A stretch of DNA of 61,324 nt, filler included, from Hausera hauseri (Eukaryota): NCBI GenBank assembly GCA_046269625.1. It is 11 parts of 11 records of this genome, joined end to end, with 100 filler letters (N's around TTAATTAATTAA, not from the genome) between each part and the next. Parts side by side here need not be neighbours in the genome. Positions count along the whole stretch, not along the records: positions 43,190 to 47,542 come from JBJURY010621220.1; 10 more parts are not named here. The stretch is one strand, 5' to 3'. Each line of letters opens with the position of its first letter. Within the stretch, counting starts at the first letter, position 1. Both the position numbers and the translations under genes were made by a program. Shown piece after piece: positions 6,033-55,655 of the stretch. The notes beneath the pieces are model-generated. The model worked only from the letters and a program-made list of their open reading frames with translations. It searched no databases and was not told the origin of the DNA.

Positions 6033-6542
6033 TTACAATAATTCTACAGTACAAGGCTTTGTATTCGCAATTGTCTCAATCCGAATTGTCGGTAGTTTTC
6101 TCAAATCTCCTCCCTGAGCGGCATCATCGAAGGAGCCTATTGCGTCAGAAGAGGTGGCGCCCAACAGTCTGGGTTGTCTCAATTGATTCATTCTTTCTCG
6201 TAGGTCCATTTGGGAATCTAGTTGACCTTGACTGATTAAGGGACTCGTCTCCAGATTGTAACTATGGTAGGGCTTGATCCGAACAACTTGGGTGTAACTT
6301 CCGTCGGAGTAGTATTTTAATTCAGTGGCCTTAGCCCGACACACTGGACATGTTGTTTTTCCATTGTCGAGTGTCCACTTTTTCAGACAATCTCGACAGT
6401 GCTTATGGCGGCAGGTCTTGTTATTCAAAACCACGTAACCTTGTCTCAGGTTGGCATTGCATACAGGGCATTCATTATCTTCTTTGTCCCAATCGTCTCT
6501 ATCTAAGTCAACCTGGATCGTTAATTCAATGGGTTTGAACAC
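6033..6542 (-). CDS. C3HC4 RING-finger domain (C-terminus of the accessory polyprotein)
   Basis: CPVC-x15-CRHKHCRDCLKKW-x8-CPVCR with all eight Zn ligands and the conserved Trp. Confidence 0.9.
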   Translation of the reverse strand: MFKPIELTIQVDLDRDDWDKEDNECPVCNANLRQGYVVLNNKTCRHKHCRDCLKKWTLDNGKTTCPVCRAKATELKYYSDGSYTQVVRIKPYHSYNLETSPLISQGQLDSQMDLRERMNQLRQPRLLGATSSDAIGSFDDAAQGGDLRKLPTIRIETIANTKPCTVELL

Positions 6543-7449
6543 AAGACCATCTCCGTCTTGATACAGGTATCCATGAATTACCTTCTGCTTAGGGTTAATG
6601 GAATTTTTTCGTGGGTCACAGTTTACTTGTATTAGTGTCCAATCTGCTATAAGGTCTCGATCTAAATCGGGAATTCTTCCTTCTATTCGATATCTTTGAT
6701 ATTGTTTCTTTAGTAGTATCCGGATTTACTTATAGACTGGAACTATTATTTTTCCTGTCCTCTTAGAGTGGAAGACTGATGTGAGATAATTTCCTAACTT
6801 AGGGTTTTTCCAAACATATGTATTTTCAAAAACTCTTTCTGGGGCAATTTTATATAAAACATGGCTTCTTTGATCATTTTCTTATTATAATATTCTGTAG
6901 TGATCAGCATTCTGGGTGAGTCCTGAGTAGTTTTACAATGGACATTTTCCTTGATTTTCTTCCATACAAGGACACTGACTTCGGTTATCATGGGTTTCAT
7001 AATTTTTTTCTCCACAGGTTTTACGTGCTGGGAGGTACTTGGTTTGTTTTGTTGGTTTTCCTTCTTTGGTTTCTTGTCTTTTCTTTTCTTCTTAAATAAA
7101 TAATTATAAATAGATAGTGTCTTCCTGGACTGGGGCTTCTCTTCTAATTTCGGTTTCTTAGTTATTGTTTCCGGCCTCGTTTCTTCTTTGTGTTTCTCTG
7201 GATACTTTGATGTTATATCTAGTGTTTTGCTTTCTTTCGTGATTGTCTGTAATTTTGTTTTATTTTTTTCTTGTCCTTCCATAGGTTCTTGTACTATGAT
7301 CGTAAGACTATGCTTGCCTGTTGGCTGGATGGTCCTAATCGGTGAGTAGGGTGCGATATTCTTTCTATATTTGGTATCTATCTGTTCGGGGTTTAGGAAA
7401 CCACGTAAATTGTATGTGGGGTTTCTAGGGGCCCATTCACGCTCCCATT

Positions 7450-7950
7450 TTAATGACCTGTAAATTTCTTGCAAATATTTGGAGCGTTGGCTAGCTGTTA
7501 GGAGTCTTCGGATTTTACCCGAGTCATTGTTCATTGACTCGATCATCAGCTTGAAGAAGGCTTCTAGAGCGGTTGGTCGATTTCTTCATTGTACGGTCTT
7601 CTCTATTCGTTCTTGGGCCCATGGGTGAGTGGCCATTTCCCTAATTCCGGCAACATTTGCGTCGGATATTTCTAGCAACTCGATTGATCGTTGTACATTA
7701 TATCCGGTTAACATACAACCGTAGAGACAATGATCCAGTTCTGAACGGACTTCTTTAATATCTTTTCCTCTTATAAGCTGTTCCTTTCTTAAACCGGTCA
7801 CTTCTGCATACGATTCTTGGACATGTTTTCGGGGGTTTATGATTGTAGAGTAAATTTCAATCCCATCTCTTTCTCTAATAGATATTTCAATGGGTATTCC
7901 ATATCCATTGTCTCCTCTGCCACAATTTATTGCTATGATTCTTATGTTAC
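7450..7950 (-). pseudogene. DEDDh (REX4/ISG20-like) exonuclease-fold domain lacking the Exo I acidic residues
   Basis: IIAINCG...IEISI...GIEIYSTIINP...EVTGLRKEQL..GKDIKEVRSEL...LYGCMLTGYNVQRSIELL follows the REX4 pattern VALDCE...RVSIV...LYD.YVKP...VSGI...L..A..F..V..E....L.G.ILVGH.L.NDL..L. Confidence 0.75.
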
Positions 7951-8623
7951 GACCATCTTGGACTAGCCTATATGACTGACGATGTTCATCCTTTTCTACC
8001 TCGGTTGGGGTTTGTTCAAATTCTATAACTGGCAAGCCTAGGTTGCAGTTCTCTCTGTAGGTCACTTCGAACATAATTTTAACAGGAAGGGCCGCTAATC
8101 TAAATTCGAGACCGTAATTTATAAGCTCTATACCTCTTCGGTTTATTTGAAATGTGCTGAACCAATATTGATGCCCTTCATTGGAGTTCCAGTTTTGGTT
8201 TTCCATTCTATAATATATTTCTCCGTTAGCTAGATGGATGTATATATCCTGAATTTTAGCTGGTCGATTTCGAATTAATTCCCTTAGGGAATATGCTTTG
8301 GCCTGATTGTTCTCGCGCATTGCGTAAAGGAAGATTGCACGATTTTCCTCTGTAATACCTTTTAGATCGTTGGGGATTTCGTTGGTTTTTGAAATTTCGA
8401 TATAGATTTTTGCTTGTAATGCGTCGGATATCCGCCTGTAGATAGACTTCGATTTCGGGATGAACACTGTGGCCTGTTCCCGGAAATATTCGTCGATGCC
8501 AAGTTGGCTATCCAAACTTACTGTTTTGAAAAACAAGAAATAAGGGTCAATCCTATAACAAAGTATTGTTCTAAATCTGACCCAATTCTTTGTTAGATGG
8601 ATGAATAACCCGGCCTATAATTG

Positions 8624-34455: not shown

Positions 34456-35267
34456 TTATTTTGGATTCGACGGAAATGAAGAGTTAGACTGGTTGCGGTA
34501 CCGTATTGAAATTCAATAATGTAGCCCGTGTCACATCGGATATTCACTTCAACATTGTTTATAGATGTAGATGCGACAGGTAGGTACTTTGGATTATGAC
34601 GCTTGACAGTGACATTGTCGCCAGCAGTATACCAGCTGCTTTCCGGATAAATTGCACGAAGTAGCGGCACACGTACTCCACCCACCAAAATCGGTTCAAT
34701 GACGTGCACGTAAATGTACATTTGACTTAGTCCAGTTTTCAGTTTGGGTTTGTGTTTCAACATGTACCGCCGCCGTATTCATTTTCGATGCAACTGTTTT
34801 TCAAAAGCCAATATTATGGCCAAAGCTTTGTCCAATGAAATGTTGACAATATCCATAGCCAGTTCAAATTTAATATACCCACTTAAATCTGACTCGAAAA
34901 CCTTAAATATCTCATTGTACTTTTGATTTGAAAAAAAGTGTTGACAGAGATGTGCTACAGTTTCGCAGTGTAAACCGTAGTTTGCTTCGGTCGTGCAAAT
35001 GGCCAATTCTCCAACTGTTATTTTATTGCTAGTAAGTATCAGAGGACAAGAATGTGTTTTGATTTCAGTAACAGTCTTATTGTGCGTTATTTTCCTACTA
35101 CCTTTCAATGTCACCGGTGCGTATGGAAAGTTAAATTCCGTCAGTGCAACCTCATATATTTCATATAAATCCAAAGGATTGTTTCAATTTACAACGTATT
35201 CACTGGCTGAATTGTTCGGACAAGTCGTCGGACAACTGTTGGTCGGAAACACCATGTAAATACTCAT
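34452..35267 (-). pseudogene. Penton / minor capsid protein (paralogue 1)
   Basis: MSIYMVFPTNS..NNSAS..PLDL..YEVALTEF and MYIYVHVIEPILVGGVRVPLLR..YLPV..INNVEVNI..LTLHFRR. Confidence 0.85.
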
Positions 35268-35303
35268 AATTTCGATGATAATGATGATGACGCAATTTGT
35301 TTA

Positions 35304-36290
35304 TTATCGGCGACATAGAAAATGTAACGTCAAATGTGTAGTTGACCCAAACAGAAATTTAATGGTTTCCCAAAATTCATCAAGCATATACACGAAAATA
35401 CTGTGCACAATATTGTGGCACAATGATAAGTACATGGGTCTGAGCATATTAACGCAAACAGTTTTACCCAATGTTTTGCACGTGTCAGAATCCAGTTCGA
35501 TTGAAACCAGTAGTTGTTTACGTTTCCCACCAACGAGTACGGATTCGGTTAAGTCCGTTAAAATGTTGATTCTATGAAATGCTCCATAGAGTTGCTGTTT
35601 GTATTTGGTAAAAATAGATTGTCCAACAATGGTTTGATAGAATTCACGTTTTAGAAAACCCAGATTCCGAGCCAATAATATCAAAGGCAAAATACGTAAC
35701 ATTGTCATATAGTGTAAGCGAAATATGACCTTCTGCATTTATATCACATGTCTATACAGCTAATGTAGCAGTTTTCTTTACGTATTCACAGAATTCCAGT
35801 ACCGTTTCCATTAATAAATCGTGTGGTATAATATATGAGCGGAAGACGAATTCTGACTTAGTAGACGTTACTATAATATCGGATTCTGCATTAAATGAGA
35901 GGTCCAATTTTTTACCAATTATAACATGTCCACCTAGCCGTAGACGTTTATAGTGTACATTGACTAATTAAAAACCCCATGTCTGAGCATCAGCTGTAGA
36001 TTTAAACTACATTTCAATGGGATTTTGATGTATTGGTTTCATACGGTAGTTTGAAAAATAAGCATAAACAGAGAAATCTTGTCGCGAATAATTGCGAAAA
36101 ATATATCGGTTATTGTGTCGGATTGTCCGCAAACGACTTGAAAGAGGGTACGTTTCTTGTCGGATAAAGTAAATACCACTGTTTTGACATATTGTCATTG
36201 GCGAAAATGTAAATGTGAATTCCGTCAAAGCTACTCCATAGGCTTCCTGGCGTAAATCGACCGGTTGGTCCAAGCGGCGTTGTCATTGTC
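35304..36290 (-). pseudogene. Penton / minor capsid protein (paralogue 2)
   Basis: PVDL..AYGVALTEF and ILTDLTESVLVGGKRKQLL..PMYLSL..LTLHFLCRR. Confidence 0.78.
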
Positions 36291-36327
36291 GTCATGTTGT
36301 GATAATAATCTGATAATCTGATAATAA

Positions 36328-37340
36328 TCAAGTACCAAGTAAATGCAGCTCATTGAATCTGTGATGCAAAAATCCAACTGGGTGCAGTGTATACATGCCA
36401 CTTGACGAGATATTGTTTATTTGAACATTTGCTATGTGAACACAGAATTTCCTGAATACGATATACATAGGGTTTCTCTGGCAGTACCTGCAGTTCCTGT
36501 TCGTAGAATTTATCGCGTATTTCATCACCGTTTTCATCCTCTAAAACGCACGTGGCAGGTGTTTGTTTTGTGTTGATTGCCCAAATGCGGAAACTTCGTC
36601 GCTCCCGTCCTGATTACAATTCTTAATAAATGGCGTCGAAATTATTTTCGGAATATGTACGTAAACACGGATTTTATATTTTGGGTGTTTAGCTGCTTGT
36701 TGTCTTTGTGTTCGGTTTTGATAAAGCCACATGTCCAAACCATCGATTACGTCAACCGGGCGCATTCCGTTGATTCCACGATGTGTCGAATGATTGTATG
36801 CATGAATAATATCCGGCAGTACATCTACCCAACGTTTGTTGCCTTGCTTCGTAACGAATTTTTTAGGCGACCGCGCAATGTTTGGTTAAATTGTTCAGCA
36901 TGTGCAGCCTTGTATTGGGAAAACACTGAGTAGTGGTTTACGCCAAACCGTTTCAAGACCGCTGCAATGTGGGCGTTGTAGAATTCCTTACCCAAATCCG
37001 TTTGTAACTGTTTCGGCTGTTGTTGTTGTATCAGTGTTTGGACAGTGTCGGCAATCTCTTTACCGGATTTAGATTTCACGTCAATTGCACGTTCAAAACG
37101 ACTAAACACATTAATATATGTTAGCACATACCGATACCCATCGTTGATGCTGGCGTACTAAATCATTTCCATCAGATCCATTTGCACACATTATGTACAC
37201 CGGCAGCACGGTATGCACGAGTTGGAAACCGCCTTCTTATCGGTTTGTTGAGGCTGTATGCTAACTATTTCCCGAGCCAACGTTGGGTTTGTTGCCAAAT
37301 CTGTTTGACAGTCTTTGCCAGTTTGTCGACGCTAGTATAT
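36328..37340 (-). pseudogene. Polinton retroviral-like integrase (c-INT)
   Basis: GYRYVLTYINVFSRF, KSKSGKEI, PKQLQTDLGKEFYN, KAAHAEQFNQTLR, MRPVDV. Confidence 0.9.
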
Positions 37341-37548
37341 CCGATGGGACGACGCGGATCGAACCATAAGTCGCCCATAGTTGTCGACGATGGTGCTGGT
37401 TTTGCTTGCATTACAACAATTTGAACGAAACGTAAATGAAAGATTCAATAAACTGGGGCAAAATGATGAAAAACATGCACCCATATCGCCGAACCACCAT
37501 ATACTTACCGTCATTGTTTATACTATGATGCAGAACCAATGAGTCCAT

Positions 37549-37850
37549 TCAGTAATGACGTGACAATCGGTAGAATTGCACCACGGAATCCGCCATCTTG
37601 CTGGTACATGACTCTCGTTTCAGTGGTTTAATACGAGCGTTGGCAAGGCCAATGAGTCGTTTTTGATACTTTAGTAAATTCCGCTTTCCACTGCCAATGT
37701 CAACGTGACCCACAACGATATTGCACAAAATTTCCATAAAATCGTCTACTGCAAACTGCAGGAACGATCGTAGCATGTTTCACTTGTCTCGTAGGTGCCT
37801 TGAGCAAAGAAATAAAGTACGGCTAATTACGTTTGAATCTCATTTTTTGG
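37549..37850 (-). pseudogene. Conserved small Polinton ORF between ATPase and integrase
   Basis: EILCNIVVGHVDI...LLKYQKRLIGLA resembles the E...N.L.GN......L..YK..LR.LA motif of Polinton small conserved proteins. Confidence 0.55.
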
Positions 37851-38069
37851 GACGTATTGATGCTGATGAGACGTAGTTGTTTATAGCCGTTGCCACTTTG
37901 ACGATAATTTGCGTCTAGCTGCTGCTTTTGTTATTCAAAACACAGAATTTATTAATCGCTTGACGATAGCGGTTTGTTTTGATACACGTTTCTTGCCGGA
38001 CACCCGCTTAGCATGTTTACGTTTAACAATCGCTTTTTGGAAATGCTTCATTTTATCTGTATCATTTCG

Positions 38070-38613
38070 TCAATTTTTGAATTTATTTATAGACACATAC
38101 ACCTTTCTGATTGAAAATGTCTATTTGTACACGCACGTCATCGGGACACTGTTGTGTAAAGTCGATGAACATGTATCCGTGTGGCTCGGTTGTAGCATCA
38201 TGATATGCATCTATCAAGTAGGCTCGGTTGTGAGGAAATATTTGTCTTGCAACATAATCAATGATAGTCTGATCACGGTGATTTTTGTACAACACCACAT
38301 AGTGTACGTTTAGATTTCTTGTTCAATGCTGTCCCCCCTGATGGAACATGTTTTGCGTAATAAAAATAACCGTTATGCCACGGTGTCGTGCAATCGTCGT
38401 GAACAGGTTGTTGAAGTCCGATTGTTTTGCGGCTTCCTGAAATAAATCGTCAGTGACAATAATGTCACCGTTGCGTAACCTATCTGACCAGTTCTCATCA
38501 AACCCATCAATTACCGTTATGGATTTCAGTTTACAAAATTCCCGATGTGTCAAACCGGACTCACCATCATCACCAACACCCTGATGCCAGTATATATGAT
38601 TATAACGCGGTGA
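38070..38613 (-). pseudogene. A32/FtsK-like packaging ATPase (5' truncated)
   Basis: IIVTDDL (Walker B), LFTTIARHRGITVIFITQNMF, YMVLYKNHRD, ARQIFP, DAYHDAT..PHGYMFID. Confidence 0.92.
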
Positions 38614-38713: not shown

Positions 38714-41129
38714 AAGATCAAAAGTGATTGGGACGAATTCCTAGAAGAAACACAATTCCTGATTAATGCGACTCCACATCCAGCAACAGAGTTCACACCG
38801 TTGTTTATGATGTATGGATGAAAGGCAATATTACCTACCGATCTAGGCATGACATCGTATGAAAAGAACCTTGAAGATTTAGAACAAAACTTTGCGGAAG
38901 TCTTACAGACAAGATTGCAGAAATATTGGAAAGTTCCGAAAACATTATCACTTGAATACAAGGAACAATTTAAACAACAATACGATAAAAAGACTAAGCC
39001 TCATAATCTGGAAAAGAGACACTGGGTTTATATACATTACCCTGTAGCGAAGAAAAGTACATCCTTGAAATTAAAACGTACCGGAAGAGGACCATACGAA
39101 ATAGTCCGTACAACGCCAACTACGGTCTATATTAACAAGAATGGTAAAGAAGAAGTCGTATCGATTTAAATAGTAGTTAAAACGGATATAAGGCCAGCTA
39201 AACATTACAATCTAAAACCATGAGAAAATAAAACCTCATCAATTATCACCAGACCGATATAATACGTTCAGATAATTCTAGCACTATCGCTAATCGCCTA
39301 TTTGTATTTTAAAAACGCAAACTCAAGGGTCGCACGACGAATTTACCTCAAAGAATGTATACGGAACGCGGAAGAATGATGTTAATAAAATAGAAAAGAA
39401 ACCAACATTAGAAGAAATCCAAAGACAGAAAGATATTACGTCATTACAATCAGTCACAATTCAGTATTATTCACCGAACTCCACATGCGTTGGATTTACG
39501 ATACAGAAAATACATCACGATTCCGGAAGATTTCAAATTGCCCTAGATTATATAATGAGAAAAGAAACAAGGAATTGTGATTTTGAGCCTGGAGAGCATA
39601 CGCAATGTTACAATACGGATTTCGGACATACTTATAACCTTACCTACCTACTGTATTCATCGCAATTTTCTAAAATCAACGAAATAAAACTACAATATCA
39701 ATTAGTTATTCCTGCTTGGAACATGCATCATGGGATAAAACCCAACGAAATGCTTCAGTCCGTCGATCCAGTAAAACGGATGCTGGAAAAAAATATTGCC
39801 AGTATTTCAGAGAATCCAAAGGACAAGTGTTCAAATAAAAACAAAAGGACGACTAATTAACAGTCGAGTAATCTCAGTCCGGTTCGTAAAAGAAAACATA
39901 CAAGCTCATAACCAACAGTACTGCCACATCGACGTCGAACAACCGACAATATGTTGCAAGCTACGTCAGAAATATAAATATAGAATTCAGTTAGACTTAT
40001 ATGAAGTCAGACCAAACCAGTCGAGTATTTATTAAGGAAGCTACCGACTCAAAAATCCAATTAAGTCAAATTTATTTAATACGACAACGAATACGAAAAT
40101 AAAGTCTACTACTCCGGTATTCATCAAAGCTACTCCAACAAATAAACCATCTTACAAAGATTCAAAAATAATTCCTGTAAAATATCAGGATTAACAACGC
40201 AAAATAATATTCATTGTGGAGGAGACACTCAGATACGACGTAGAAATAAGCTTCCGAACATTATACGATAATCAGAAAGTAACACTGCCAAAAGGCAGTT
40301 ACCGAATCTAATGTATTGAGTTGAAACTCAAAACAGATTATATAATACAAATGGGTGCAGAAAATAAACAAGGTAGAGTGTTTACAATACGAACCTTGAA
40401 CGAGATTGTCGTAATAAAACCAATAACTGATGAGAGAACAGATGATGAGACTAAGACTACCGTCAAAATGGAAAATTGACCTAAATGGACATCGTTGTCA
40501 TTAATATCAATTATTGGAACATTAATATTCGCTCTCATAATGATAATTGCGTTTTGTCGGTTGATAACCAAAAACTGCTATAATAAACTCCCTAAAATCT
40601 ATGAGAGAGAGTTAAGGGTGATGGTACCACAGGACAGAATTAATGATGGAATAACCGACAACTACAGATTGGGTTATTCCACCATCAAACAAAGAATTGG
40701 TTTAAGTTTCGAACAATACTTTGTTTAGGGATTGACTCTTATTTTGTACTTTCTATCAGAATGGTAAGTACGAGCAGCGGACCTAGAATCGACGAATTCT
40801 TTCACAAATACGGAACAGTTCTTATCCCCAAATCAAAGGGCATATAGCGAAGAATAAACGACGCATTGCGGACAGAAATACATGTCGAATACCGGAAAGT
40901 AAACGAGATACCTAACTATCTGAAAGGTACCACTGAAGACAATCGCACAGTTTTGCTATACGCAGTGCGTGATAATAATGAAACCAAGTCATACGATCTT
41001 AACGACCTAATCCAGAGTAAAACGGCCAGAGTAGAAGATATATTCATCCATCTAGCCGATTGGAAAATTTACTACAGAATAAAGAACTAACAATAAAACG
41101 GTAACGAAAAGCGCCAATACCGATTTAGC

Positions 41130-42233
41130 ATGTTTAGAATAAGTGGACGAGGTTTAAAAACTATTGACTATGGATTAGAATTTCGAGTAGCAGCCTTACC
41201 TGTAAAATTGATGTTCGAAGTGACTTATAAAGCGAGCTGCAACTTAAGCTTGCCAGTTCTACAGTTCGAACAAACCCAAACAGAGGTCAAAAAGGATGAA
41301 CATCTGCAATCATATAAGTTAGTCCAAGACGGTCGTAACGTAAGGATCCTGGCTAAGAACTATGGTAGAGGAGACGATGCATATGGAATACCGATCGAGG
41401 TATCTATTCGAGAAAGAGATGGGACTGAATTATGCTCAACCATTATAAACCCTCGGAAACATGTTCAGGAGTCACATGAGGAAGTGACTGGTCTAAGGAA
41501 AGAGCAACTGATAAATGGAAGAGATATTCTACAGGTCCGTTCGGAGCTAGACCATTGTCTTTACGGATGCATGATAACAGGATACAACGTCAAAAAAGAA
41601 ATGGAGCTGTTAGGGATATTCGAAGCAAATATTGCCGGACTTAGGGAAATAGCTACCCATCCAGTAGTCCCAAAGCGAATGGAGAGAACCGTGCAAGGAA
41701 GAACTCGACCAACCGCGCCAGAAGCTTTCTTTAAAATATCCATTGAAGCGATGAGCGAAAACCCAAGTAAAATTCCGAGACTTCTGACAGCTAGCCAACG
41801 TTCCCAATATTTACAGGAAATTTATAAAACGTTAAAATGGGAACAGGAATGGAACCCTAAAAACCCTATATACAATCTGCGGAGCTCCATAAACCCTGAA
41901 CGAATATATCGTAAATATAGAAGAAACATAAAACCCTATTTTCCGATCCGAACCGTTCAACCAGCAGAGAAGCATAGTCTCAAAACCACAGTACCAAAAT
42001 CAAAACCAGAAAGCAAGACGGAATTACGGAAGATTAAAGAGAAAGAAAAGACACTGCAAGGAACATCAAAGTCTCCAGAAGAACGAAGAGAAGAAACAAG
42101 GCCAGAAACAATAATTAAAAAGATGAAATTAGAAGAGAAACCTCAACCCAGGAAAACATTATTTATCTACAACTATCTATTCAAAAAGCTTAAGACAGAT
42201 GAAGGACAAAAGGCAGAGAACCAACAAAATTAA
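41130..42233 (+). CDS. Open segment of the accessory polyprotein: DEDDh-fold domain plus Lys/Glu-rich linker
   Basis: 367-aa ORF homologous to 6794-8536. The Exo I position reads ILAKNYG. Confidence 0.75.
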   Translation: MFRISGRGLKTIDYGLEFRVAALPVKLMFEVTYKASCNLSLPVLQFEQTQTEVKKDEHLQSYKLVQDGRNVRILAKNYGRGDDAYGIPIEVSIRERDGTELCSTIINPRKHVQESHEEVTGLRKEQLINGRDILQVRSELDHCLYGCMITGYNVKKEMELLGIFEANIAGLREIATHPVVPKRMERTVQGRTRPTAPEAFFKISIEAMSENPSKIPRLLTASQRSQYLQEIYKTLKWEQEWNPKNPIYNLRSSINPERIYRKYRRNIKPYFPIRTVQPAEKHSLKTTVPKSKPESKTELRKIKEKEKTLQGTSKSPEERREETRPETIIKKMKLEEKPQPRKTLFIYNYLFKKLKTDEGQKAENQQN

Positions 42234-42799
42234 CCAAGAACCTCTCAGGACATAGAACTGTTAAAGAAGGGAATTAGGAGTCCCATTATAACGGAAATTA
42301 ACGCCCTAATAGGAAAAAGAAATAAAGAGGACGCGCACTTTAAAACAACCCAATATTTTCCCAGAATGTTGGTAACTACCGAATACTACATCAAAAAGAT
42401 AATAAAGGAAGCTATGTTCTTCATTAAACTTGCCCCAGCAAGAGAGGTATTTGAAAACACTTATATATGGGAAAATACTAAACTGGGAACCTACCTTACA
42501 TCAATTTTTCGATCAAAAAGGACAGGGAAGATAATAGTTCCCGTGGACAAGCAAATATGAATATCACTGAAGAAGCAATATCAGAAATATAAAATAGAAG
42601 GGAGGATTCCTAATCTAGATAAGGACCTTATAGCAGATTAGACCCAGATTCAAGTAGATTGTGATCCGCGTAAAAGTTCAATAAACCCTAAGCGGAAGGT
42701 AATTCACGGGAACCTATACTAAGATACAGACGGCCTTGTTTTTGAACCCATTGAATTGATCATTCAAGTCGTTTAGATAAAGAAGATTGGGACAAAGAA

Positions 42800-42945
42800 G
42801 ATAGTGAATGCCCCGTATGTGATGCAAATTTAAGGCAAGGATATGTGATATTAGATAACAATAACTGTTGTCATAAATATTGTCGAGACTGTCTAGAGAA
42901 ATGGACACTCGACACCGGAAAAACGACGTGCCCAGTATGCCGAGC
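42800..42945 (+). pseudogene. C3HC4 RING domain, copy B
   Basis: ECPVCDANLRQGYVILDNNNCCHKYCRDCLEKWTLDTGKTTCPVCR. Confidence 0.9.
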
Positions 42946-43089
42946 TGAGGCCACAGAATTAAAGTATTACTCTCATGGAAGTTATACACGAGTTGTTAGA
43001 ATTAAACATTACCACAGCTATAATTTGGAAACGAACCCAGTAGCCAGCCGAGACCCAAGGTGTTCACCAACCGATCTGCCCGAAAGAAT

Positions 43090-43189: not shown

Positions 43190-43319
43190 TGTGAAGCTGA
43201 ACAATACACAGTATAGCACGTGCAATATCTTCTCCAGAAATATCAGTCAAATGAGGCAACGAGGCAGAGACATGGTCAATCTCAAGCTCTCTACAATAGA
43301 AGTTTTAGGATGACAGGGA

Positions 43320-43650
43320 AAGGATAAGGATAAGAATAAGTCCTTATTTAACCAGGGTTGAGAAATAGGCTGTATTGCCTGTTTACATTTCTGCCCTGGG
43401 GTAGGTTTTTCCTATAATTTTTCCCGTACAGCGGCCGTTAGGCCCACTCTTTTTCAATTTTCAACTGCCAGGTGATTTTTAACGTGCACGACAATGTACA
43501 CGAACGTCCGATCTCACTACCCAGAGATCAGGGGAATTTATTACTAGATGATCCAGGTGAAAAAAATCCCAAGTGCTTCCACCGGGACTCGAACCCCGCA
43601 CCTCTATCAATCGATGCGGACGTCCTACTTCGAGACCACTGAGCCCTCCC
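43320..43650 (-). mobile_element. tRNA-derived SINE (possible Nin/Deu-like core)
   Basis: The - strand has an A-box-like gggctcagtggt, a B-box ggttcgagtccc, an internal gtgcacgttaaa block and a short cttat(c/t) repeat tail. Confidence 0.6.
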
Positions 43651-44846
43651 CCACCCCCTCGTTATATAGGGAGGTAGGGCAGTACCCAAACTGGTGTTTG
43701 AGATGCTTTTCAACGCCATAAAACGCAAAGGCGGGACCCTTAAATGGAAGCTGAAATAACCTGCAGCAAACTATTGCACACGTCAAATGAAGGTACGCGC
43801 TATTTTTAAATGTATTTACGTTACGCTTCTGTGACAATTTGTAGGCAAGCGCGCACGCTTAGAGGAGACATTGCCTGTGACTAGACATAGTATTCTGGAA
43901 CGCCACATTGCGGAATTATAGCAAACAACCAACTAACAAAATTGGGGAAGAAACTGTACTCGTCACTAGTTCCCAGCAGTAAATGATTTACTGTTCACAC
44001 TTGAAGCAGTTGAATACAGTCGAACAAGGGCCCTCGATGTGAAGCCGAGCTATGATAACTGTATAAATTAAATTCCAAACCATTTCCTTTTCTCTTGCAC
44101 TCGGCGACATGCGCGTCTTTTAAATGGGGATCGGACGGCAACCGAATTTATGTCCCTATCAAATAAGCGAATAACTGACACGGCGGAAACTTAATGAAGT
44201 GGGGTACAGCGCGGCCGAACATTTCATCCATTCTTCAGATTCGGCTCAGTCGCTTCTCAGTTTTAACAGGCGCCATGTTGGAGGCGTAATGAACCGAAAC
44301 GAATTGCTGCTTTGTTCGGCGACCTCGCAATCCCCGGATGAGACGGTCACTAAAAAAGCAGAAACTCCGTGCTTTGATACACCGAAACAAATCATGCGGG
44401 GCTCAGTACTCGAGATTCTGTCGCATTAATAGGCGCAGGGAGGAATGAAAATTGAAATAAGTGGCAGACAAAAGAGTTATTTTGCCTCATATTTTTTTTT
44501 CAAGTCTCTTCACATGAAGCGGCCGATCCAGCTCCAAGCATGTGCTTCAGAAGTCGGATTTTCTAGCACCGAGAATAATCGGGTTTTGGCCGCGGCTTAG
44601 TGGGGTGTCGCAGGAGGGGATAATATTGAACGAATGGCGCGATTTAGTCCGTCGTGCCAGGCCCGTGGTGTGGATATGTCGACCCCTCCGTCCACAAAGC
44701 ATGGATGCCCGTGTTTGCCCACACGTACCTATGTTTGCTTGCGATTTGTATCAGACATCAAGTCTTCTCATCGTGTGCCTTGGTGGAATGTGATCCTCTT
44801 AGGGTCAACAGGAGGGCGTAAAGTCTAAATCTGTATTACCTTGTAT

Positions 44847-45062
44847 CGTTTAAGGTTATATTGAAAAGGTACTACGATCTAATCGTTACATTCAAGCAAA
44901 TCAATTAAAATTTTTGTTAAATGTACAGTGTTTTGTAGCATTTAATTTTCATACAACATTTTAACGTAATTGTCAGTGTTTGAATGAAGTTTATGTTAAG
45001 TTTTCAGTTAGTGTTACTACACCATTTCTTTTTTCAGTTTAATTCACCTAAATACCTTAACA
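44847..45062 (-). repeat. Candidate 3' LTR (~216 bp)
   Basis: Begins TGTTAAGGT three bases after a G10 tract on the - strand and ends in the imperfect inverted terminus ACCTTAAACG. Confidence 0.62.
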
Positions 45063-45065
45063 TTT

Positions 45066-45075
45066 CCCCCCCCCC
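45066..45075 (-). promoter_or_regulatory. Polypurine tract (PPT)
   Basis: GGGGGGGGGG-AAA-TGT on the - strand, preceded by an AT-rich 3' UTR (45080-45320). Confidence 0.7.
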
Positions 45076-45329
45076 ATTTTGAAGAAAATTCTCTTTACAT
45101 AAAGGAAAATTTTATTTAAATAGATGTTTACTTGAAGTCGATTGACTCTCAGAAAAAATGAGGAATACACAAAATTTATATGAATAAAGAATGAAAGAAA
45201 GTATATCACAATTTATCATAATATCTGAAATGTTAAACTTAATAATCATAAAATATTACAGTAAAAAGTAGAGATAAAATACAATAATACAAGAAAGTGA
45301 AAGAAAGTAATGTCACGGAATATACACAG

Positions 45330-47393
45330 TCACAATTGGATTATTAAGTTTTTGTTGTTTTCCATCTCCTCGTCAGTCTTAACTATCGTTGGCATTTGGT
45401 ATAAATTTTCCAGAGTGTATTCGTCTCTTTTGGCGAATAATAGCATCTTCATGTTAGCCTTTCCTGAATTTCGTAGTTTGATACATCTTCCTCGTGGGTT
45501 TGGAATTGGTACCACGTCCATTTGTACTGGTATTGGTTGGTTTACCATTATGGGAGTATGTTGAAGTTCCTTTATTTTATCTAAAGAACTTCCGATCATC
45601 GCTAAGTGTAGCGTATTGTACGTGATGTGCTTGTAAATTAATCCTACTACATTTTCAAATAGTTGAGTAGGAATGATTTGATTGCTTAAGAGTCGATTTT
45701 GGCTCTTTTATAAATTTGACATTGATAACGTGGTTGATCTGTCCATAAATTAAGATGGATAGGTTGATAAAAGTGATTTTCTCTTCTTTTTTGGGGTTAT
45801 TCATAATTGCATTGGTTTGCAATTTTAACCTTTTAATTGGGAATTCAGTGCTTTGCTCTGCAATGCTGGTATCTGGTAACTTTTCATATTTGTAATTGCT
45901 ATGATACTTCATAGGTATTGCTTTAAAGCTTCCATAGTCGATGAGATTGTGAAATGGAGGAATTCAACTGTTCCCAATGTTCGTTGGAACAAGAATCGGT
46001 AATTTGTGTGTAGATATTCATTATGACTTGGATTACAGATTCAGCAGTCTTAGGGAAGTCCATTTGTAATCCATACACTCGTGGCAATTGTGAGATTTAA
46101 TTTCAATTTTTCCTCTTCGAATCTTTTCTTTGTATTGGAAATAGAAAGTAAGTCAATGATTCCAAATGAAAAAGACTTTGGAATTCTTAAAGCTTTGAGG
46201 ATCGTGCTTGTGTTAGCACTGGTAACAATATAGCCATACAAATATTTGATCAATTCTGTTCTTATGATTTCCTCATCTTCGGCTTCTTCTATAATAGATA
46301 AGGATAATCCGTGGATATGTTCGTTGGTGTTTGAGATCTTTCTCCTTGGGTTGAGAAACGCATGGTAAATGAGCAATTTGGCTTCATAAGTCACCATCAC
46401 TTCCACTGGTAAGGGGTCTCCATTTGAAGCATACGCGAGAGACCGCCAGATATCGACAATTACAAGCTGTTGACAATTGGTAATTTGAAGTTTCTTCTGG
46501 TGGTCGTTGGTGAAATATAGGTTCTTTCAAACCCAGATTTTCGTTTAGAGTTTGACAAATTTCAACACCTAATACTACTGGGGTTAGTAGTATTCTAAGA
46601 TAAAGTGGTGTTTCAAAAGCAATATGGTTTAGCCTCATTGTAGATTTCGAATGGTTCTTGTAACTTGAGCATTTCACTTAATTTAATATTATAACAGGGT
46701 TTTTCGATCTTCATAATGCGGAAGGATCTCGTTGATGGTTGACGTTTTTAGACTGTTGTCCAGGTATTTACTCTGTAGGAAGAGTACGTCTGATGAATTC
46801 TCAGTGAGTTCGATTAATCGATTGTAGAATTTATTGGAATATAATTTTTTTCAGGCAACGTATATTAGAATGGATTTACTGTATAATTCGTTCCTAGGTT
46901 TATCCATTAATTGATGTTTTTTACTGTCCAACAAATTGTCTTGTAATTGTAATTGCAATTTGTTTTGTTTGTCTTCGGGAAGATCGTCAATACTGATTCC
47001 TCTTCTTCTGATTTCAACTGCAAATTGGATTCGTGGTTGGTTTACCACTGTCATTAACAATTTTTGATTTGTTTGGTTTGCTAAGATTCCTCGACAGGGT
47101 CCTAGTCCTTGAATAGGATTTTGAAATGTTAAAAATGGTGTGTTTGAATTTGGTAAGCACTGATGTGGTGGTATAACCTTTCTTTTAGGGTTATACACCA
47201 CGGTTTCTGTGGACGCGTCGGATTCTGAACCGCTATCAGACATAGCGTCCAAGTCAACATCTGGTACTTCCATGTTTTTCTGAGCTGGATCATTTAGAAA
47301 GTTCATTTTTCTGAAAAGAGAATGATTATTATGGTGGGTCGTATTTAATGGCCCATCATTAGGGTAGGTGGTTACCCTACTATATTTTTTCAT
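45330..47393 (-). pseudogene. Distant homologue of the accessory DEDDh-fold region in a third LTR element
   Basis: NLGLKEPIFHQRP.E..YQL, RYLAVS and PVEV...IYHAFLNPRRKI...IHGL...IRTELIKYLYGYIVTSAN align with copy A NLGLPVIEFEQTP.E..YRL, RIIAIN and PIEI...IYSTIINPRKHV...VTGL...VRSELDHCLYGCMLTGYN. Confidence 0.72.
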
Positions 47394-47542
47394 TGGTTTA
47401 GTTGTGTCGTTAGAACATTGTAAATCTATTGGTTGAGATTTACTCTTATTTTCTGGTATGTGTCAGTAATATTATTCTATGTTGTGTGTGCATTTTTGCA
47501 TATTTGTGCCTTAGATTGAATTTTTTATGTCCCTCAACGTCG

Positions 47543-47642: not shown

Positions 47643-47849
47643 GAAATATCAATAAAAGAAGTTGTTTCTGCATTGAAGGACAATATTACAGTTCAATACT
47701 AAATAATGTTTGAAAGTTTAAAAAAATACATATTATAATTGTCGTTCTTATCTTTTAAATTGTGATTATTGTTGCAATCAGTTTATATATGGATTTAAAC
47801 AAAATCCCTGAAATAATTCAAAAACAACAATAGTGTCAGAAGTGTACGA

Positions 47850-49960
47850 CGAAAGTTGAATTGACGATTACAGCGGATTTTGATTGGAATGATAAACATC
47901 ACGATAATTCACAGGCATTTTGGATATTCGTCGGGGATGTTATGGGTAAAAACGACAACCATACTTTGAAATTCTTTGTGCCAATATTTGAACCATTACC
48001 GCCTCTCTATTTTATTCGTGCTATCTCCGATCGCTGGTTGGCATCTGAAACGGATATACCTTTAACGTTTTTCTAAACAATTTTACTGGGAAAGAATCAT
48101 ACGCCAACGGATTTACTTGATTTGCAGCAATTGTTAATTAAGGCGTTTAGAAATGAAAAATTCAAACAATTTTACAACAACCGAATGAAAAATCTCAATG
48201 CAATTCAGACGCAATGTTTTGAATCATTGTTATAACTCCGATGAAAATGTCTTTCTCGGTGCACCAACAGGAAATGGAAAAACGGAATGTGCCGAATTTG
48301 CCATTATGCGATTGTATTCTAACCGACCAGTGGGTCACTGTGTATTTGAAGAAACGGCTCAAATTCGCTATGATAAATGGCAGAAAACATTCGGTAGTTC
48401 GAACAAAAATGTTGTTATATTACCTGATAATACGAATGTCGATTGCCAAAGCAAATATTGTTGTAGCAATGGAAGAAAAATGGAATGTGTTGTCTCGACG
48501 TTGGAAGAACAGAATGGCCGTTCAAAATATCAATTTCTTTATCGTAGATGATTTACACTTGCTCGGCAATCACCACAATGGAAATACACTTGAAATTCTG
48601 TGTTCAAGACCTAGATATATGAGTTCACAACTTGAAATTCCAATACGAATAAGCGGTTTGTCTTATTCACTCAGTAATGCCAGAAATGTTGGTAAATGGT
48701 TGGATAGCAGTAATGCAGCAACGTATAATTTCCATCCAAATGTCCATCATCGTCCAATTACTATTTAATTTAAGACTTTTACCATTGCTCTTACGGCTAC
48801 TCGGTTGAATGCTATGACGAGATCAATTTATCAATCCGTAATTAAAAATCCAACAGAGTCCCATAATTAATTTTACACCAACAATGAAACAGACTGATAT
48901 AACAGAATTCAATCTGATGGGATTTGCATTGTCCAATAAGCGGAATTTCACTTCTTTGGTTCTTGTCATGGATACTGAATTTCACAATGGCAAAGATTGT
49001 ATGTACAATGATTACGAAGCTGTTGATTTGATCCAGATGATTGGTCGTGCAAATAACGTCCAATATGACGATGCCAGGACAATAATAATGTGTTAGATTA
49101 ACAAGAAGGATTTCCTTGATATATTCCTTTCCGAACCGCTACGGCTTGAGTTTCATTTAGATCATCATTTGATTGATCATTTTAATGCTGAGGTCGTTAC
49201 GAAAACGATTGAGAACAAACATGACGCAGTAGATTATTTGACATAAACGTTCCTTTATTACCGAATGACAAAGAATCCGAATTATTATCAATTGCGAGGT
49301 GCCAGTCATCGCCGTTTAAGTGATCATCTTAGTGAACTCATTGAGAACACATTTAACGATCTTGAAAAGTCACAATACGTAACAGTCAAAGATGATATTG
49401 ATGTAACACCAATCAATTTGGGAATGATCGCTGCATTTTATTACATTCATTATGCTACAATCGACATGTTCAGCAAATCACTGCTGGCCAATTCAAAAGT
49501 AAAAGGGTTATTAAAATTTTTTGCAGTGCCGATGAATTTGAAAAACTCCCAATTCGGCATAGTGAAGATGTTGTTTTATCGAAAATTCGACCGTTCCTTC
49601 GAATGCCATTGTTAGACAAGAGAAGTTTAGCAGATCTAAAGACCAAAACCAGTATATTACTTCACTCCCATTTACTTCGTATTCCAATTGAATCAGCTGA
49701 ACTTAGAGAAAATCTCAATCAAATATTAATGAAGTGTATCAGATTAATTCAAGCATGTGTTTATGCGCCGTCGAGTAACAGATGGTTGCGTCCGGCTCTG
49801 GCGGCCAGGGCATTAGCACACATGATAACTCAGGCAGTGGCATCGTGATTTGCTTCTGCTTCAGATTCCTCATTTCGATAACGAGGATATTTTGAAGAGA
49901 TGTGAAAATGCTAATGTTAAAAGCGTATTCGACTTTATGGAACTTGAAAAAGACAGCATT
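47850..49960 (+). pseudogene. SNRNP200: U5 snRNP 200-kDa helicase Brr2, C-terminal cassette fragment; intronless with deletions and frameshifts
   Basis: KVELTITADFDW, FFVPIFEPLPPLYFIRAISDRWL, NVFLGAPTGNGKTECAEFA, EKWNVLSRRWKNR, QMIGRAN, MTKNPNYYQLRGASHRRLSDHLSELIE, INLGMIAAFYYIHY, RLIQACV. Confidence 0.95.
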
Positions 49961-50650: not shown

Positions 50651-53600
50651 ATTTTCGGGAACATCAGTGTGACCGACCGCCCGGCCGTCTGTCCTATGTC
50701 AGTGGGTTCTACGCAACGGCCCGTCCGTCACCATATTACCCACTAGGGCACACACCAAAACTCGCCTTTTTCTTTTTCCTAAATAATTACCAACTATTTG
50801 GACACATAACAACGTCTTGCACAACAACTTGCACAATTATGTACTACACTTCGTTAGTATCGCTGACTTTTACCTCACAACAACCTTCCTGTAATTAATG
50901 TCAATTTTCGCAACCTTTCTGTTCCGTCATCCCATTATGTCACTATTCACGTACACATTCGTATCCGTGGTGGCTTGGATTCTTCACTCACCATTGACAC
51001 TACTAAAAAATTAACTCTAAACCATCACCCTTCACTTTTCTCCAAAAATCAACGACCGTCATCACGCCATCTACTTTCATCATTTATACACCTTGCATCC
51101 CGCCAGCCAAATATACTTCTTAGTGCACGTAATACTTTATTGTCCATGAAAAGTCCAGCAAAACTTGGCTTAACTTTCACACACTTTGGCTGCAGTCTAA
51201 CAGTATTACTGATCCCTTAGCCAAAGCTCAGCTTACTTTGCCTCTTATCCAACACAGTAAAGACTTCTCGTCACGATATGTTAGAGATCTTTCAACAATC
51301 CGACCCGTACACCCACCTCTATAATGCAGGTTTAAAACTCACGGAACCGTCTATGGATTCCATAATCCATAGATTCTTCAATGACAAAGCTATGGGTACA
51401 CAAAAACCATCCGATTTTCTCATAACCTCTTTCGCTCAACTGCAAACACGGCCTTAAAAAACAAAATAATTCCGATCTCTTACGACGTTACTTTCTAAAC
51501 GCACTACCGATTCAGATCAGGGCCCTGCTAAACGTCATCGAGGAATCGACAGGACTAGATAAGTTAGCCGAACTTGCAGACAAAACGTACGAGGTCTTAC
51601 ACTTAAACACACCTATCATGTATGCAACACTTACAGCAAACGACAACACATTAGAATATCAAATACAACAGTTGCGGGCCGAAAAGGCAGCCCTACATAA
51701 TACAATAAACAATATCAACGATAGATTAAATGAAATCTCAGTGACTCAATAAAAGGGTTCCGCCTTCGATCGCACACGTTCTGTACACAGAGGTCGGTGC
51801 CGCTTTTACACCCGTAAGTATCAAGTTAACAATGCTATTTGCATTTACCACCAAAGTTTAAGAATGATGCACATAAGTGTATCCCTGGTTGTACCTTTAG
51901 CAGCAACACTCAACATACGAACGTCGGACGTTCTCTCTTCTAACAGCCGTCCAAGTTCACCACTTCCAAAAAACTAGTTCGCCGTCAGAGCTTACGGCGT
52001 GTCCTGGCGAAGGCCATTCTCCAGTTTCTACCAGCCGAAAACCTTCTTTCGCCGCATTTACAGTAAAAGCGGTAACTACGTTATCAAAAACTCGCCACAT
52101 AGATTTCCTCGTTGATTCAGGTGCAGCGATTTCTTTACTGCCGCTCACCTTTCCAACTCAACACAGTTCATCCAACTATAAACCTCTATTTACAGCTTCT
52201 GGACAACCGCTACATGTTTCGGTACTTATTGGCTTTCTTTTACCCTTCCCAAATTTACTCCAACGTTCAACTGGACGTTTACCGATGGAAACGTCGAGAC
52301 AGCCATTTTAGGTTCCGACTTTCTTTCGCACTATAATCTCCTTGCCGATTGCAAACAACATTGTTTAACAAGTGGTTGCAATAAGGAACGAGTCGATCAC
52401 GCCGATACCATTTCGGCTGTCTTGCGGATGAATGCAACTCGAAAACCGATATTAAAAAAACCGTTGAACAAACCTTTTTTTACAATCATGGTACCTTGTT
52501 TTATACGTTGTTGAAAAACAATATTACTGACGATTGGATTTTGCACGGCGATGAGCACGATTCCGTCACCACTGCCAAATCATTAGATAAAACTACCGCC
52601 TACAATACCATTTTCAATACTACCATCCTGCATCGAATACCACTTCATTTTAGATCACCAAATAACACCCAAATTGCAACAGTTACCGATAAAACCATCT
52701 CGTCTCCAACAAACTTTTCACAATTATCTGCAAGTCTGCAGCAATTCATTAACGTATCCTGTTCCAGAATAATTCAAAAAGGCAGGTCTTTTACACCAGC
52801 CAATACCACTTTTAACCACATTGTGACACAACATCAAAGACCAATCCGCCAAAAAGTGCATCCATTATCTCCTTATTGGAGACAGGCCGTTGAAGCCGAA
52901 TTTCTAGATCTCGAACGTTCCGGCATTGTACGTCGCGCCAAATCCCCATGGTCGTCGCCATTACATGTCGTGCAAAAGAAGGACGGAACTTTTAGACCAT
53001 GTGGTGATTATCGTCAGTTGAACACTGACAATATTGGATGCATACCCGCCACCACCCATTAAGAATATCTTACACCGTCTTAATAAAGCCACAATTTATT
53101 CTACCATTGACTTATTCAAAGCCTACCACCAAATTCCGGTGGCACCTGAAGACATCGGAAAAACATCCGTAACTACTCCTTTCGGCCTTTATATATATTT
53201 GTACATGCCTTTCTGCCTACCGAATGCTGCGCAGACTTTTCAACGCCACATCGATGCTATCCTTTCTGATTTTCCTTATGCTCATCCCTATATCGATGAC
53301 ATATTAATTGTTTCCTCTTCGATCCAACAACACGAGGAACATCTCAGATCAATTTTCAACGTTGCCACCAACATAACCTGCAAATCAATTTCGCCAAATG
53401 TCATTTTTTCCCGAAGCGTAGAAATGTCCTTGGTCACATTATTTCTTCTGAAGGTCACTCGCCTCAACCCGATAAATTTGAAGCCCTAAAAATGTGCAGC
53501 TACCTCGAACAACAACAGAAATGAGGAGCTTTTTGGGCATTTTGCACTTCGTTCACAAGTATGTGCCGTAATGCTCTGAACTTACCGCACCATTTGCTCA

Positions 53601-54121
53601 CTTCAGTGGTGAAAAAAAAACAGCCAATAATATGGACTTCCGAATTAGTAAACAAATTCGAAAAGCTAAGAGAAGGTTTAAAAACAGTCGAAATATTAGC
53701 TTTCCTTAAGCATGTTGCACAACTTGTCCTTACTACAGACGCCTCTACTACCGCCGTAGGCGCCGTACTTCATCAAATTCATCGAGGAGAAAACCAGCCC
53801 TTGGAGTTTTTTTTCACGCAAGTTAACACCTGAAGCTAGGTACTCAACGTTTGACCGAGAGCTTTTGGCCATAGTTCTCGCATTAAAACATTTCTCTTAT
53901 CTACTTACTGCTCGCCACTTTACTATACAAACCGACCACAAGCCTTTACTCAACATAATGACAATGAAACACACATCATCATCCTCAGGAACGACAGATC
54001 TCATACTTTTCGACGTTCAATTTCGAGATCAAACACATTAACGGTGTAAATAACTTAGTCGCCGACTTTCTCTCAAGGTCAGTAGGCTCAATTACCTTTA
54101 AGCCGCTTTTCACAAAATCAG

Positions 54122-55369
54122 TTGCAAGAAAACCAACCACCTTCGGACATGCTTAAATCTTTTCGATCTTACAATATCATTGACGGCGTGGCTTTCGACA
54201 CGTCTAAACGAGGACAGTCTAAAGTAATCTTAGCTCCTGCCTTGCAAACACAAACATTCAACAGCGTACATTCACTACATCACCCTGGTTCTAAGGCCAC
54301 CTTTCGCTTGTTTCACCGACAAGTAATATGGCCGTCTATACGTTCTGGTGTGCAAGCGTGGGTTAAGGAATGTGTGGCCTGCCAGAAATTTAAAACCATT
54401 AAGCATTTGAAGCCACCACTACACCATTTCCCTTGCATATCGCGTTTTGAGTCCGTACATATTGATATTGTTGGCCCTCTCCCTACTGACAACGGTCATC
54501 AGTTCATTTTGACCATGATGGATCGTTCCTCACGATGGCCAGAAAATGTCCCTCTAAGGAGCACTAACACGGACACAATAGCCGACGTTTTCATACGCAC
54601 GTGGATAAGCAGGTTTGGATCCCCTAGGTTCATTATTACAAACCAAAGTACTCAGTTTGAGTCCAACTTGTTTAAATCACTCGTTAACCGATTAGGAATC
54701 AGCCATATGCACACAACACCATATAACCCCCAATCGAATGGTCTTCTACAGAGATTCCACAGAACACTGAAAACGTCATTGAGAATCCTCACTGAATCCA
54801 ATAGCAGTTGGACTGCCCTTCTTCCGTTAGTTTTACTGGGTGGGCGAAACACTCCTTTCACTTCTACAGGTTGTTCACCTACGGAAGCCCTATTCGGAGA
54901 ACCCGTGAGTTCATTATTTGAGCTTACTGCCTTGGAAGATACACCTACAGACGAAACTATCCGAACGGCACAGAACCACTTCGTCTCAGTAAGCAAAGAC
55001 TCATTCTGCAGAATAATACGTAATAAAACTTACCTACCCGATGATTTATATTCTGCAAAGTTTGTATGGCTGAGAAACCAAACGCCGTGCGGTTTTCAAC
55101 CACGGTATTTGGAACCCAGAAAACTCGTTCAATTGCACCCTTACAATGCCATTATTTCTAAAGACGGTAAGGAACTAGCGGTGCATATCAACAACGTCAA
55201 GCATGCCTTTTTCGTAGACGATACCACCCAAATTGGATTTTATAACCCCTTTCTGACTCTTCCGCCTTTTCCTCTTTCGGTTCCTCCATTGCTGCACCCC
55301 TTTTCATTCCGGCCCCTATTTCCATTCCTTTACCAAAACCTACTCAAAACTCCCCTTCTACTAACCTAA
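54122..55369 (+). CDS. Gypsy integrase (HHCC plus rve), open but with a substituted second catalytic Asp
   Basis: HSLHH..CVAC, VHIDIVGPL, ITNQSTQF (D>N), TTPYNPQSNGLLQRFHRTLK. Confidence 0.92.
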   Translation: MQENQPPSDMLKSFRSYNIIDGVAFDTSKRGQSKVILAPALQTQTFNSVHSLHHPGSKATFRLFHRQVIWPSIRSGVQAWVKECVACQKFKTIKHLKPPLHHFPCISRFESVHIDIVGPLPTDNGHQFILTMMDRSSRWPENVPLRSTNTDTIADVFIRTWISRFGSPRFIITNQSTQFESNLFKSLVNRLGISHMHTTPYNPQSNGLLQRFHRTLKTSLRILTESNSSWTALLPLVLLGGRNTPFTSTGCSPTEALFGEPVSSLFELTALEDTPTDETIRTAQNHFVSVSKDSFCRIIRNKTYLPDDLYSAKFVWLRNQTPCGFQPRYLEPRKLVQLHPYNAIISKDGKELAVHINNVKHAFFVDDTTQIGFYNPFLTLPPFPLSVPPLLHPFSFRPLFPFLYQNLLKTPLLLT

Positions 55370-55655
55370 CAACCTGTACTTTCTTTTCTCTTACATCTCC
55401 TCCTCCGTCTCCTTCTTCGTCCTTGAACGACACAACACCTAACACGACGAAATCTGACATTGTTTTACCTGAATCACCTCAGCAAGTAGACTTAAAGACA
55501 TTGAAAAATAACAAATCAGTCACATTTAGTACCTACAGTACTGTGATTAACACTTCAGGGGTACAACGTCTTATTCATACAAAGACCACTTAGGCAGCCT
55601 GCACCGTTTCTACACATTTTCTACTTTCTTACCTCTCTGGTTGTTGCTTTACCAC

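Follow-up and report, generated by a model that had tools for sequence, protein, structure and literature searches.

A disarmed exonuclease fold in the remains of a likely LTR retrotransposon of Hausera hauseri

A 61,324-nt stretch of Hausera hauseri DNA (hereafter the window, composed of 11 contigs with N-spacers between them) holds three related copies of an accessory gene. The subject of this study is copy C, encoded by contig 43190-47542 (minus strand); copy A lies on contig 5997-11128 (minus strand) and copy B on contig 38714-43089 (plus strand). By its gene content, the host would be an invertebrate animal. The feature is real, and the core claim of the first-pass annotation, that of an old lineage which keeps a dead nuclease, stands. 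As judged from sequence, the cargo is a two-domain family holding both members predicted to be active and members predicted to be dead. For copy C itself, we hold it an even proposition that a long terminal repeat (LTR) retrotransposon of Ty3/Gypsy type, now decayed, has left its 3' portion here, and that its disarmed exonuclease was a putative non-cutting nucleic-acid clamp.

Homology and layout of copy C

Searched against the C contig by tblastn, copy A gave two collinear high-scoring segment pairs, at 46644-46495 (34%, 53 amino acids) and 46424-46113 (25%, 104 amino acids), with a sum E-value of 2e-10, while copy B as query gave 7.5e-7. The two A-C segments fall in different frames, and a frameshift-aware A-C alignment scored 138, compared with a maximum of 47 over 12 codon shuffles. 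Among 71 references, the two top matches of C were A (138) and B (116), the library matches among these references having come from a profile that itself included C. At the nucleotide level A and B are 73% identical across 3.3 kb and C has no match to either; the sense-strand bias is identical in the three copies (38-39% A). An exonuclease fold collinear with that of A and B had been proposed at 46050-46677, of which the collinearity was confirmed by tblastn and the shuffles, whereas the 5' part turned out to belong to another domain, of which it forms the end: a beta-barrel predicted to be of cupin or double-stranded beta-helix (DSBH) type. This barrel end reached a z of 5.8 with 0 of 200 shuffles as good; for the possible N-terminal half of the barrel, the family hidden Markov models (HMMs) gave no significant match and the z against A was 2.5. 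No piece of C matched Pfam and nothing on its contig matched Rfam. A candidate second barrel on the 3' side of the exonuclease fold was rejected (profile score 48.9 versus a null mean of 51). The frame of copy C shifts twice, within the Exo I region and near 46050, and stops interrupt it upstream, so that C is a pseudogene.

A profile search of 1.84 billion representatives returned 68 matches, 33 of which carry, fused to the exonuclease fold, an upstream domain with an IPNxLK motif and a predicted cupin/DSBH fold. The remaining 35 were kept out of the counts, being fragments, distant members or proteins judged by tree and motifs to be cellular REX4-like or bacterial DnaQ-like. The catalytic set D-E-D/E-H-D was kept in 19 of the two-domain members and the first Asp was gone in 14; the Exo III His was kept in none of the 11 dead members aligned there, three others ending earlier. 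Alignment searches added seven proteins (upstream domain in five, intact Exo I in six, one fragment), the yields being 3 of 7404 and 8 of 8000 candidates, compared with 0 of 1272 for a word-indexed protein search with A; longer forms fused to pol were not among the targets. The 11 relatives with a stated source are ENA, JGI or Logan records, and no relative was found in prokaryotic genome contigs or phage records. The relative P0001 has 870 amino acids and is 39-48% identical to the A and B pieces.

Fold prediction gave an ISG20/REX4-type fold with ISG20-type nearest structures, in agreement with the RNase T/DEDDh-type fold suggested beforehand. An RNase D-like DEDDy subtype was considered and rejected on account of these structures and of the His (DEDDh) present in active relatives. 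In the barrel, Pro99, His146 and Glu200 were conserved in 33, 29 and 28 of 34 sequences respectively, Glu200 being present in all 15 dead rows; the HxD/E...H metal motif was not conserved in the 34 aligned sequences, in which one His and one Glu only are conserved. Structural neighbours of the barrel in the P0001 model include AlkB-family oxygenases. The N-termini of the dead relatives P0001 and P0005 carry a hydrophobic segment (Kyte-Doolittle values of 2.07 and 1.83), a possible signal or anchor that is missing from most of the other members. Outside the DSBH family, P0004, P0042, P0044 and P0025 show two to four tandem REX4-like stretches, several of them with degenerate catalytic motifs.

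The position of the cargo directly upstream of a polypurine tract and LTR held as regards order, but a coding remnant of about 640 nt and an untranslated region of about 250 nt intervene (Table 1). The remnant has no Pfam match, no CxxC and no convincing homologue. The succession of AT-rich untranslated region, G10 tract and TG was found as described: G10 at 45075-45066, AAA, then TG at 45062, and this is the single site in the window, on either strand, at which at least eight G are followed by purines and TG. As for the LTR, the TG abuts the tract, but neither a second copy nor a target-site duplication was found in the window, which does not reach into the 5' half of the element. Its inverted-repeat end near 44849 was the third-best scoring end among contig positions at least 80 nt downstream, and a sharp rise in GC and CpG at about 44850-44800 coincides with it. 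At the other end of copy C, the integrase-tail-like KFNLR motif lies at 47523-47509; the extended motif D..K.FNLR had an ungapped score of 29 against the integrase tail of A (2 of 1656 background windows as good) and of 24 against that of B (41 of 1656), which is suggestive only because the motif was chosen beforehand by eye. If the integrase tail is real, no ectodomain gene stands between pol and cargo in C.

Two absences reported for C were upheld: CxxC and CxH are missing in every frame from 45970 to the tract, leaving no RING before the LTR, and the best Kyte-Doolittle 19-mer reaches 1.52 in C, compared with 1.82 in A and 2.87 in B, leaving no transmembrane segment. In copy A, integrase H2C2 and rve domains are followed by an ectodomain region, with a fibronectin type III (FN3)-like repeat and a hydrophobic segment, and then by the separate RING-ended gene. 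The interval between pol and cargo (A, 8624-10100, minus strand; B, 39250-40640, plus strand) comprises a signal-peptide-like stretch in frame with pol, a Cys-rich ectodomain, the FN3-like repeat (Pfam fn3 E 0.018) and the hydrophobic segment, and as a whole it resembles no env type that we recognise. A retroelement context is shown for A and B only and is likely for C; we infer the LTR-element identity of C and the retroelement context of the library relatives.

Table 1. Features of copy C, listed from its integrase-tail-like motif to its candidate LTR, and the accessory genes of copies A and B
Feature	Position	Strand	Basis
Integrase-tail-like motif D..K.FNLR, possible pol 3' end; contig ends here	47509..47541	-	
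Open frame of 203 codons that probably extends the accessory gene at its N-terminus; has an acidic patch, no transmembrane segment	46854..47462	-	Open reading frame (ORF)
Possible N-terminal half of cupin/DSBH-like domain, broken by stops; FYNRLI at the family's IPNxLK position	46680..46853	-	Profile of nearest relatives alone
DSBH-like C-terminal strands (family's conserved Glu kept in LGVEIC) and RPxEE linker	46495..46674	-	tblastn segment with A; P0001 model fold
Exo I region with frameshift: YLAVS (46452-46438) in upstream frame, VIVDIW (46463-46446) in downstream frame; no Glu either way	46437..46494	-	
ISG20/REX4-like exonuclease core: NPRR, HG, Exo II IVTSANTSTIL without Asp, GIIDL	46053..46436	-	
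Exo III helix past second frame change near 46050: PKTAESV...NIY	45971..46052	-	Frameshift-aware alignments with P0005 and family profiles
A-rich coding remnant, two frames, no RING	45333..45960	-	ORFs
3' untranslated region, AT-rich (U-rich on sense strand)	45076..45330	-	19-23% GC in 45300-45101
Polypurine tract, G10 and AAA	45063..45075	-	Only such site before TG in window
Candidate 3' LTR of some 215 nt that starts with TG; terminal inverted repeat imperfect, ATTAAA present twice	44845..45062	-	No second copy; end unconfirmed
Accessory gene of copy A, running from a DSBH-like domain through the dead exonuclease fold and a linker to a RING	6036..8614	-	Downstream of integrase and FN3/transmembrane ectodomain region
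Copy B accessory gene, layout as in A	40794..43018	+	

Loss of the catalytic residues

When the five ligand positions are mapped on active relatives, copy A has A-N-S-L-R, copy B A-N-E-L-R and copy C ?-?-I-K-V. At Exo I the alignment agrees with the sequences AINCG and AKNYG previously read in A and B, in which Ala occupies the Asp position and Asn the Glu position. The Exo II Asp is indeed gone in A (Ser) and C (Ile); B has Glu, an acidic residue used there by many active members too. The Exo III His and Asp are replaced by Leu and Arg in A and B, and by Lys and Val in C (PKTAESV). For Exo I of C, the AVS of the first-pass annotation is only one of two readings, depending on the location of a frame change somewhere between about 46530 and 46430: YLAVS has Ala at the Asp position, VIVDIW retains Asp, and no Glu is found at the Glu position under either. 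Because the Glu is gone in both readings, C is without four or five of the five ligands.

The probable reading, on sequence criteria, is YLAVS. Of four HMMs from which C had been left out, three score highest with the break placed at about 46443-46434, the margin being 2 to 7 bits, and the HMM of active members is flat on the break position; summed pairwise scores are 669 for YLAVS versus 655 for VIVDIW; and codon usage prefers the upstream frame, with a log-ratio of about 2.8. In addition, Ala stands at the Exo I Asp position in all six nearest relatives of C, and the VIVDIW reading costs an insertion of two residues or more. An excess of basic residues at dead sites, seen in 9 of 17 rows, was close to chance expectation and is not claimed.

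In a tree computed with the catalytic columns taken out and the ambiguous stretch of C masked, C was sister to A, B, P0001 and P0002 (91/87), within an 11-row all-dead set (95/98). Against HMMs built without C, it scored 62-66 bits with the dead members and 37 with the active members. The tree requires two to three losses of catalysis, with long branches in play; a single origin of the dead state was not rejected (approximately unbiased test, p 0.07) yet was not favoured either, appearing in 0 of 200 bootstrap trees. The dead relatives P0001, P0005 and P0020 have stop-free domains that miss the same residues. Between A and B, the exonuclease fold gave a nonsynonymous divergence (dN) of 0.16 and a synonymous divergence (dS) of 1.19 over 175 codons, with a dN/dS of 0.14 (bootstrap 0.07-0.23); identity was 72% in the exonuclease fold, 60% in the barrel and 81% over 72 codons of the RING, dS being saturated or nearly so in the barrel, pre-RING and RING regions. 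The all-dead clade around C, the stop-free dead relatives and the A-B ratio support the proposal that an old lineage keeps a pseudo-nuclease.

Had the missing residues reflected decay alone, intact relatives were to be expected; such relatives exist (19/33) but are placed in other branches than C, and they point to an active ancestor and not to decay of the lineage of C. Cellular ISG20/REX4 relatives are active exonucleases, and because of this the active state is regarded as ancestral. From the all-dead clade and the constraint between A and B it follows that the ligands were lost early in the branch and that the fold was maintained afterwards, the stops and frameshifts now present in C being later decay.

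Among the library members, a RING occurs in 1 of 33 (P0001), and otherwise in A and B. The suggested gain or loss of modules by the lineage is consequently supported for a RING gain in A/B/P0001, but a RING loss in C is disfavoured: since the RING is confined to that branch, it was probably gained there. Copy C is thus a decayed witness to the age of the dead branch, and it indicates that the core can move about with neither RING nor ectodomain.

Proposed function and its rivals

Since the dead form is kept by selection in relatives of C, it probably binds RNA instead of cutting it, and a putative nucleic-acid-binding accessory protein is the most likely function. In the proposed mechanism, the gene after pol would have encoded a protein in which a cupin/DSBH barrel lacking a conserved metal motif is joined to an exonuclease fold of ISG20/REX4 type, and the family ancestor would have been an active 3'-5' exonuclease. 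In the branch of A, B, C, P0001, P0002, P0005 and P0020 the metal ligands would have been lost long ago and the fold retained under purifying selection. The resulting clamp may hold RNA 3' ends, either of the element's own RNA/cDNA or of host small RNAs, and may thereby protect or route element transcripts; the barrel would serve as a further module, for binding or for reading. The RING, presumably a later addition in the A/B/P0001 sub-branch, could ubiquitylate what the clamp brings in and would never have been needed by C.

Several observations weigh against this reading. No LTR partner of C lies in the window and neither reverse transcriptase nor integrase lies on its contig, and a pol domain was found in none of the 39 relatives scanned. 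When A, P0005 and three family profiles are aligned to C with frameshifts allowed, the break falls upstream, by which C would keep the Exo I Asp. Copy C itself, being a pseudogene, has a long branch (1.77), and the tree of the exonuclease fold alone did not place it. The A-B dN/dS is approximate because dS is high, and purifying selection shows some function, not its kind.

Among the alternatives, a counter-defence decoy or adaptor is unlikely, though to be taken seriously: the dead fold would mimic a host DEDDh nuclease or a partner surface, nucleic-acid binding being incidental, and would block host restriction or silencing factors or, with the RING, degrade them. The high identity of the A and B RINGs and the two to three losses of catalysis, which fit an arms race, speak for it, as does PML, a host-side RING-family protein with a dead DEDDh domain that restricts LINE-1 (PMC10123124). 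Against it, neither C nor 32 of the 33 library members have a RING, and no partner on the host side was identified. It is improbable that the exonuclease fold is only the structural partner of a functional barrel with a small-molecule or modified-base pocket; the conserved Pro99, His146 and Glu200, the latter also throughout the dead rows, the AlkB-family structural neighbours and a Gypsy-borne AlkB demethylase in orchids (PMC9289625) would agree with it, but the barrel lacks a conserved HxD/E...H motif and is less conserved between A and B than the exonuclease fold.

The two remaining alternatives concern copy C itself. That it is an at least partly active nuclease, which lies outside the dead branch and decayed after insertion, appears very doubtful: VIVDIW does resemble the xxFIDIE of active members, C has frameshifts and stops, and its long branch might be attracted by those of dead members that are also long, but the Glu and the His as well as the Asp of Exo II and that of Exo III are gone, a chance loss of four to five ligands is less economical than inheritance, and HMM score, top pairwise matches and tree all favour the dead branch. 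We give slightly less credit still to a host pseudogene or a cargo of another mobile element, with tract and TG in coincidental succession. The contig without pol, the lack of a second LTR and the DEDDh cargo of KolobokD DNA transposons (PMC9587614) are compatible with it; against it, A and B, the nearest relatives, sit behind integrase sequence, and the tract, TG, composition boundary, strand bias and integrase-tail-like motif are concordant in orientation and order. A bolder reading, which we regard as unlikely, would see in these genes a widespread and undescribed animal LTR-retrotransposon counter-silencing family, in which an ISG20/SDN1-like nuclease, fused to a cupin-like reader, would when active degrade host small RNAs, with repeated switches to a dead form that sequesters small RNAs and, in one branch, a RING that destroys the bound silencing complex.

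Other features of the window and known systems

The N-terminal extension of copy C has no Pfam or NCBIfam match and no convincing homologue among 76 references; its homology to the pre-RING domain of A and B was not accepted (47 versus a null maximum of 43, and 42 versus 41). It contains NPKRKVI at 47192-47172 (minus strand), which we take to resemble a nuclear localisation signal. The same 7-mer occurs in the pre-RING domain of B (about 42680-42700, plus strand), and the sharing may reflect convergence on such a signal or a shuffled module. On the same contig, a tRNA-like sequence with the look of a short interspersed element (43500-43650, minus strand) includes what we presume to be a GGTTCGAGTCCC box; it has no ARAGORN or Rfam match, and ARAGORN returned nothing across the window. 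Polinton/Maverick-like remains occupy 31324-38613 and 1-5896, with an rve integrase at 36828-37157, pieces of a protein-primed DNA polymerase B at 4384-5948, and capsid-, protease- and ATPase-like ORFs that were called by eye and have no Pfam match. Decayed and apparently intronless copies of the host genes SNRNP200/Brr2 helicase (Sec63, winged helix-turn-helix) and Suf/CSTF3, at 47643-49850 and 17324-17904 (both plus strand), each adjoin a Gypsy pol remnant. Another Gypsy family has left three related pol remnants (RVT_1, rve), at 19000-22000, 29800-31100 and 51400-55400 (plus strand), and tandem repeat arrays lie at 58143-59028 and 61073-61324.

Extra genes of LTR retrotransposons are few and of mostly unknown function. 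The present family offers natural active/dead pairs of one two-domain protein, in intact form suited to expression, with which to ask how a nuclease benefits a retroelement and for what reason cutting is repeatedly lost while the fold stays. Among the matches listed in the full-text literature, with subscription journals, Repbase and supplements aside, no description of a cupin-like plus ISG20-like cargo, or of its dead version, was found. The main text of a survey of metazoan errantiviruses makes no mention of exonuclease, fibronectin or RING (PMC13524379), and a comparison with Cer1 CERV was dropped, its text containing neither 'exonuclease' nor 'DEDD' (PMC10309623).

The Juno and Vesta LTR retrotransposons of bdelloid rotifers carry a DEDDy ORF3 between pol and the 3' LTR, with invariant residues reported to be intact (PMC5408684; rotifer DEDDy ORF3s are also cited in PMC6338049). 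This gene resembles the present cargo as an extra exonuclease-fold gene in the same position, but is an intact RNase D-like DEDDy protein, whereas the DEDDh fold of the present family is of the ISG20/REX4 type and joined to a DSBH-like barrel, 14 of the 33 library members being dead and one branch having a RING. KolobokD elements likewise show a DEDDh cargo in an invertebrate mobile element, similar to exuperantia, TREX and ERI1 (PMC9587614); unlike the present elements they are DNA transposons, and their nuclease is not ISG20-like. In orchid Gypsy elements, the extra ORF encodes a 2-oxoglutarate-dependent dioxygenase of AlkB type that is an active N6-methyladenosine demethylase (PMC9289625), thus also a DSBH-fold gene, while the present barrel is without the conserved HxD...H and is fused to an exonuclease fold.

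On the cellular side, ISG20, ISG20L2, REX4 and SDN1 are the best sequence and structure matches, and active family relatives keep the same D-E-D/E-H-D; these proteins, however, have no upstream barrel, and A, B and C are without most or all of the ligands. Precedents for RNA binding without cutting are Maelstrom and EXD1, which the literature cites as DEDD proteins that bind RNA but are inactive (PMC5408684), and PML. In PML, active and dead DEDDh domains occur within one family, by a change from the former to the latter, and the dead domain binds nucleic acid (PMC10123124; PMC13659232), the pseudo-exonuclease PXL binding G-rich RNA and DNA (PMC13659232). PML PXL/CDE is likewise a dead DEDDh fold on one polypeptide with a RING. 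PML is nevertheless a vertebrate host gene with an N-terminal RBCC, whereas the RING described here is C-terminal and its gene element-borne. The likeness is an analogy, with no close homology shown; the family mirrors, on the element side, the active-to-dead switch reported for a host restriction factor.
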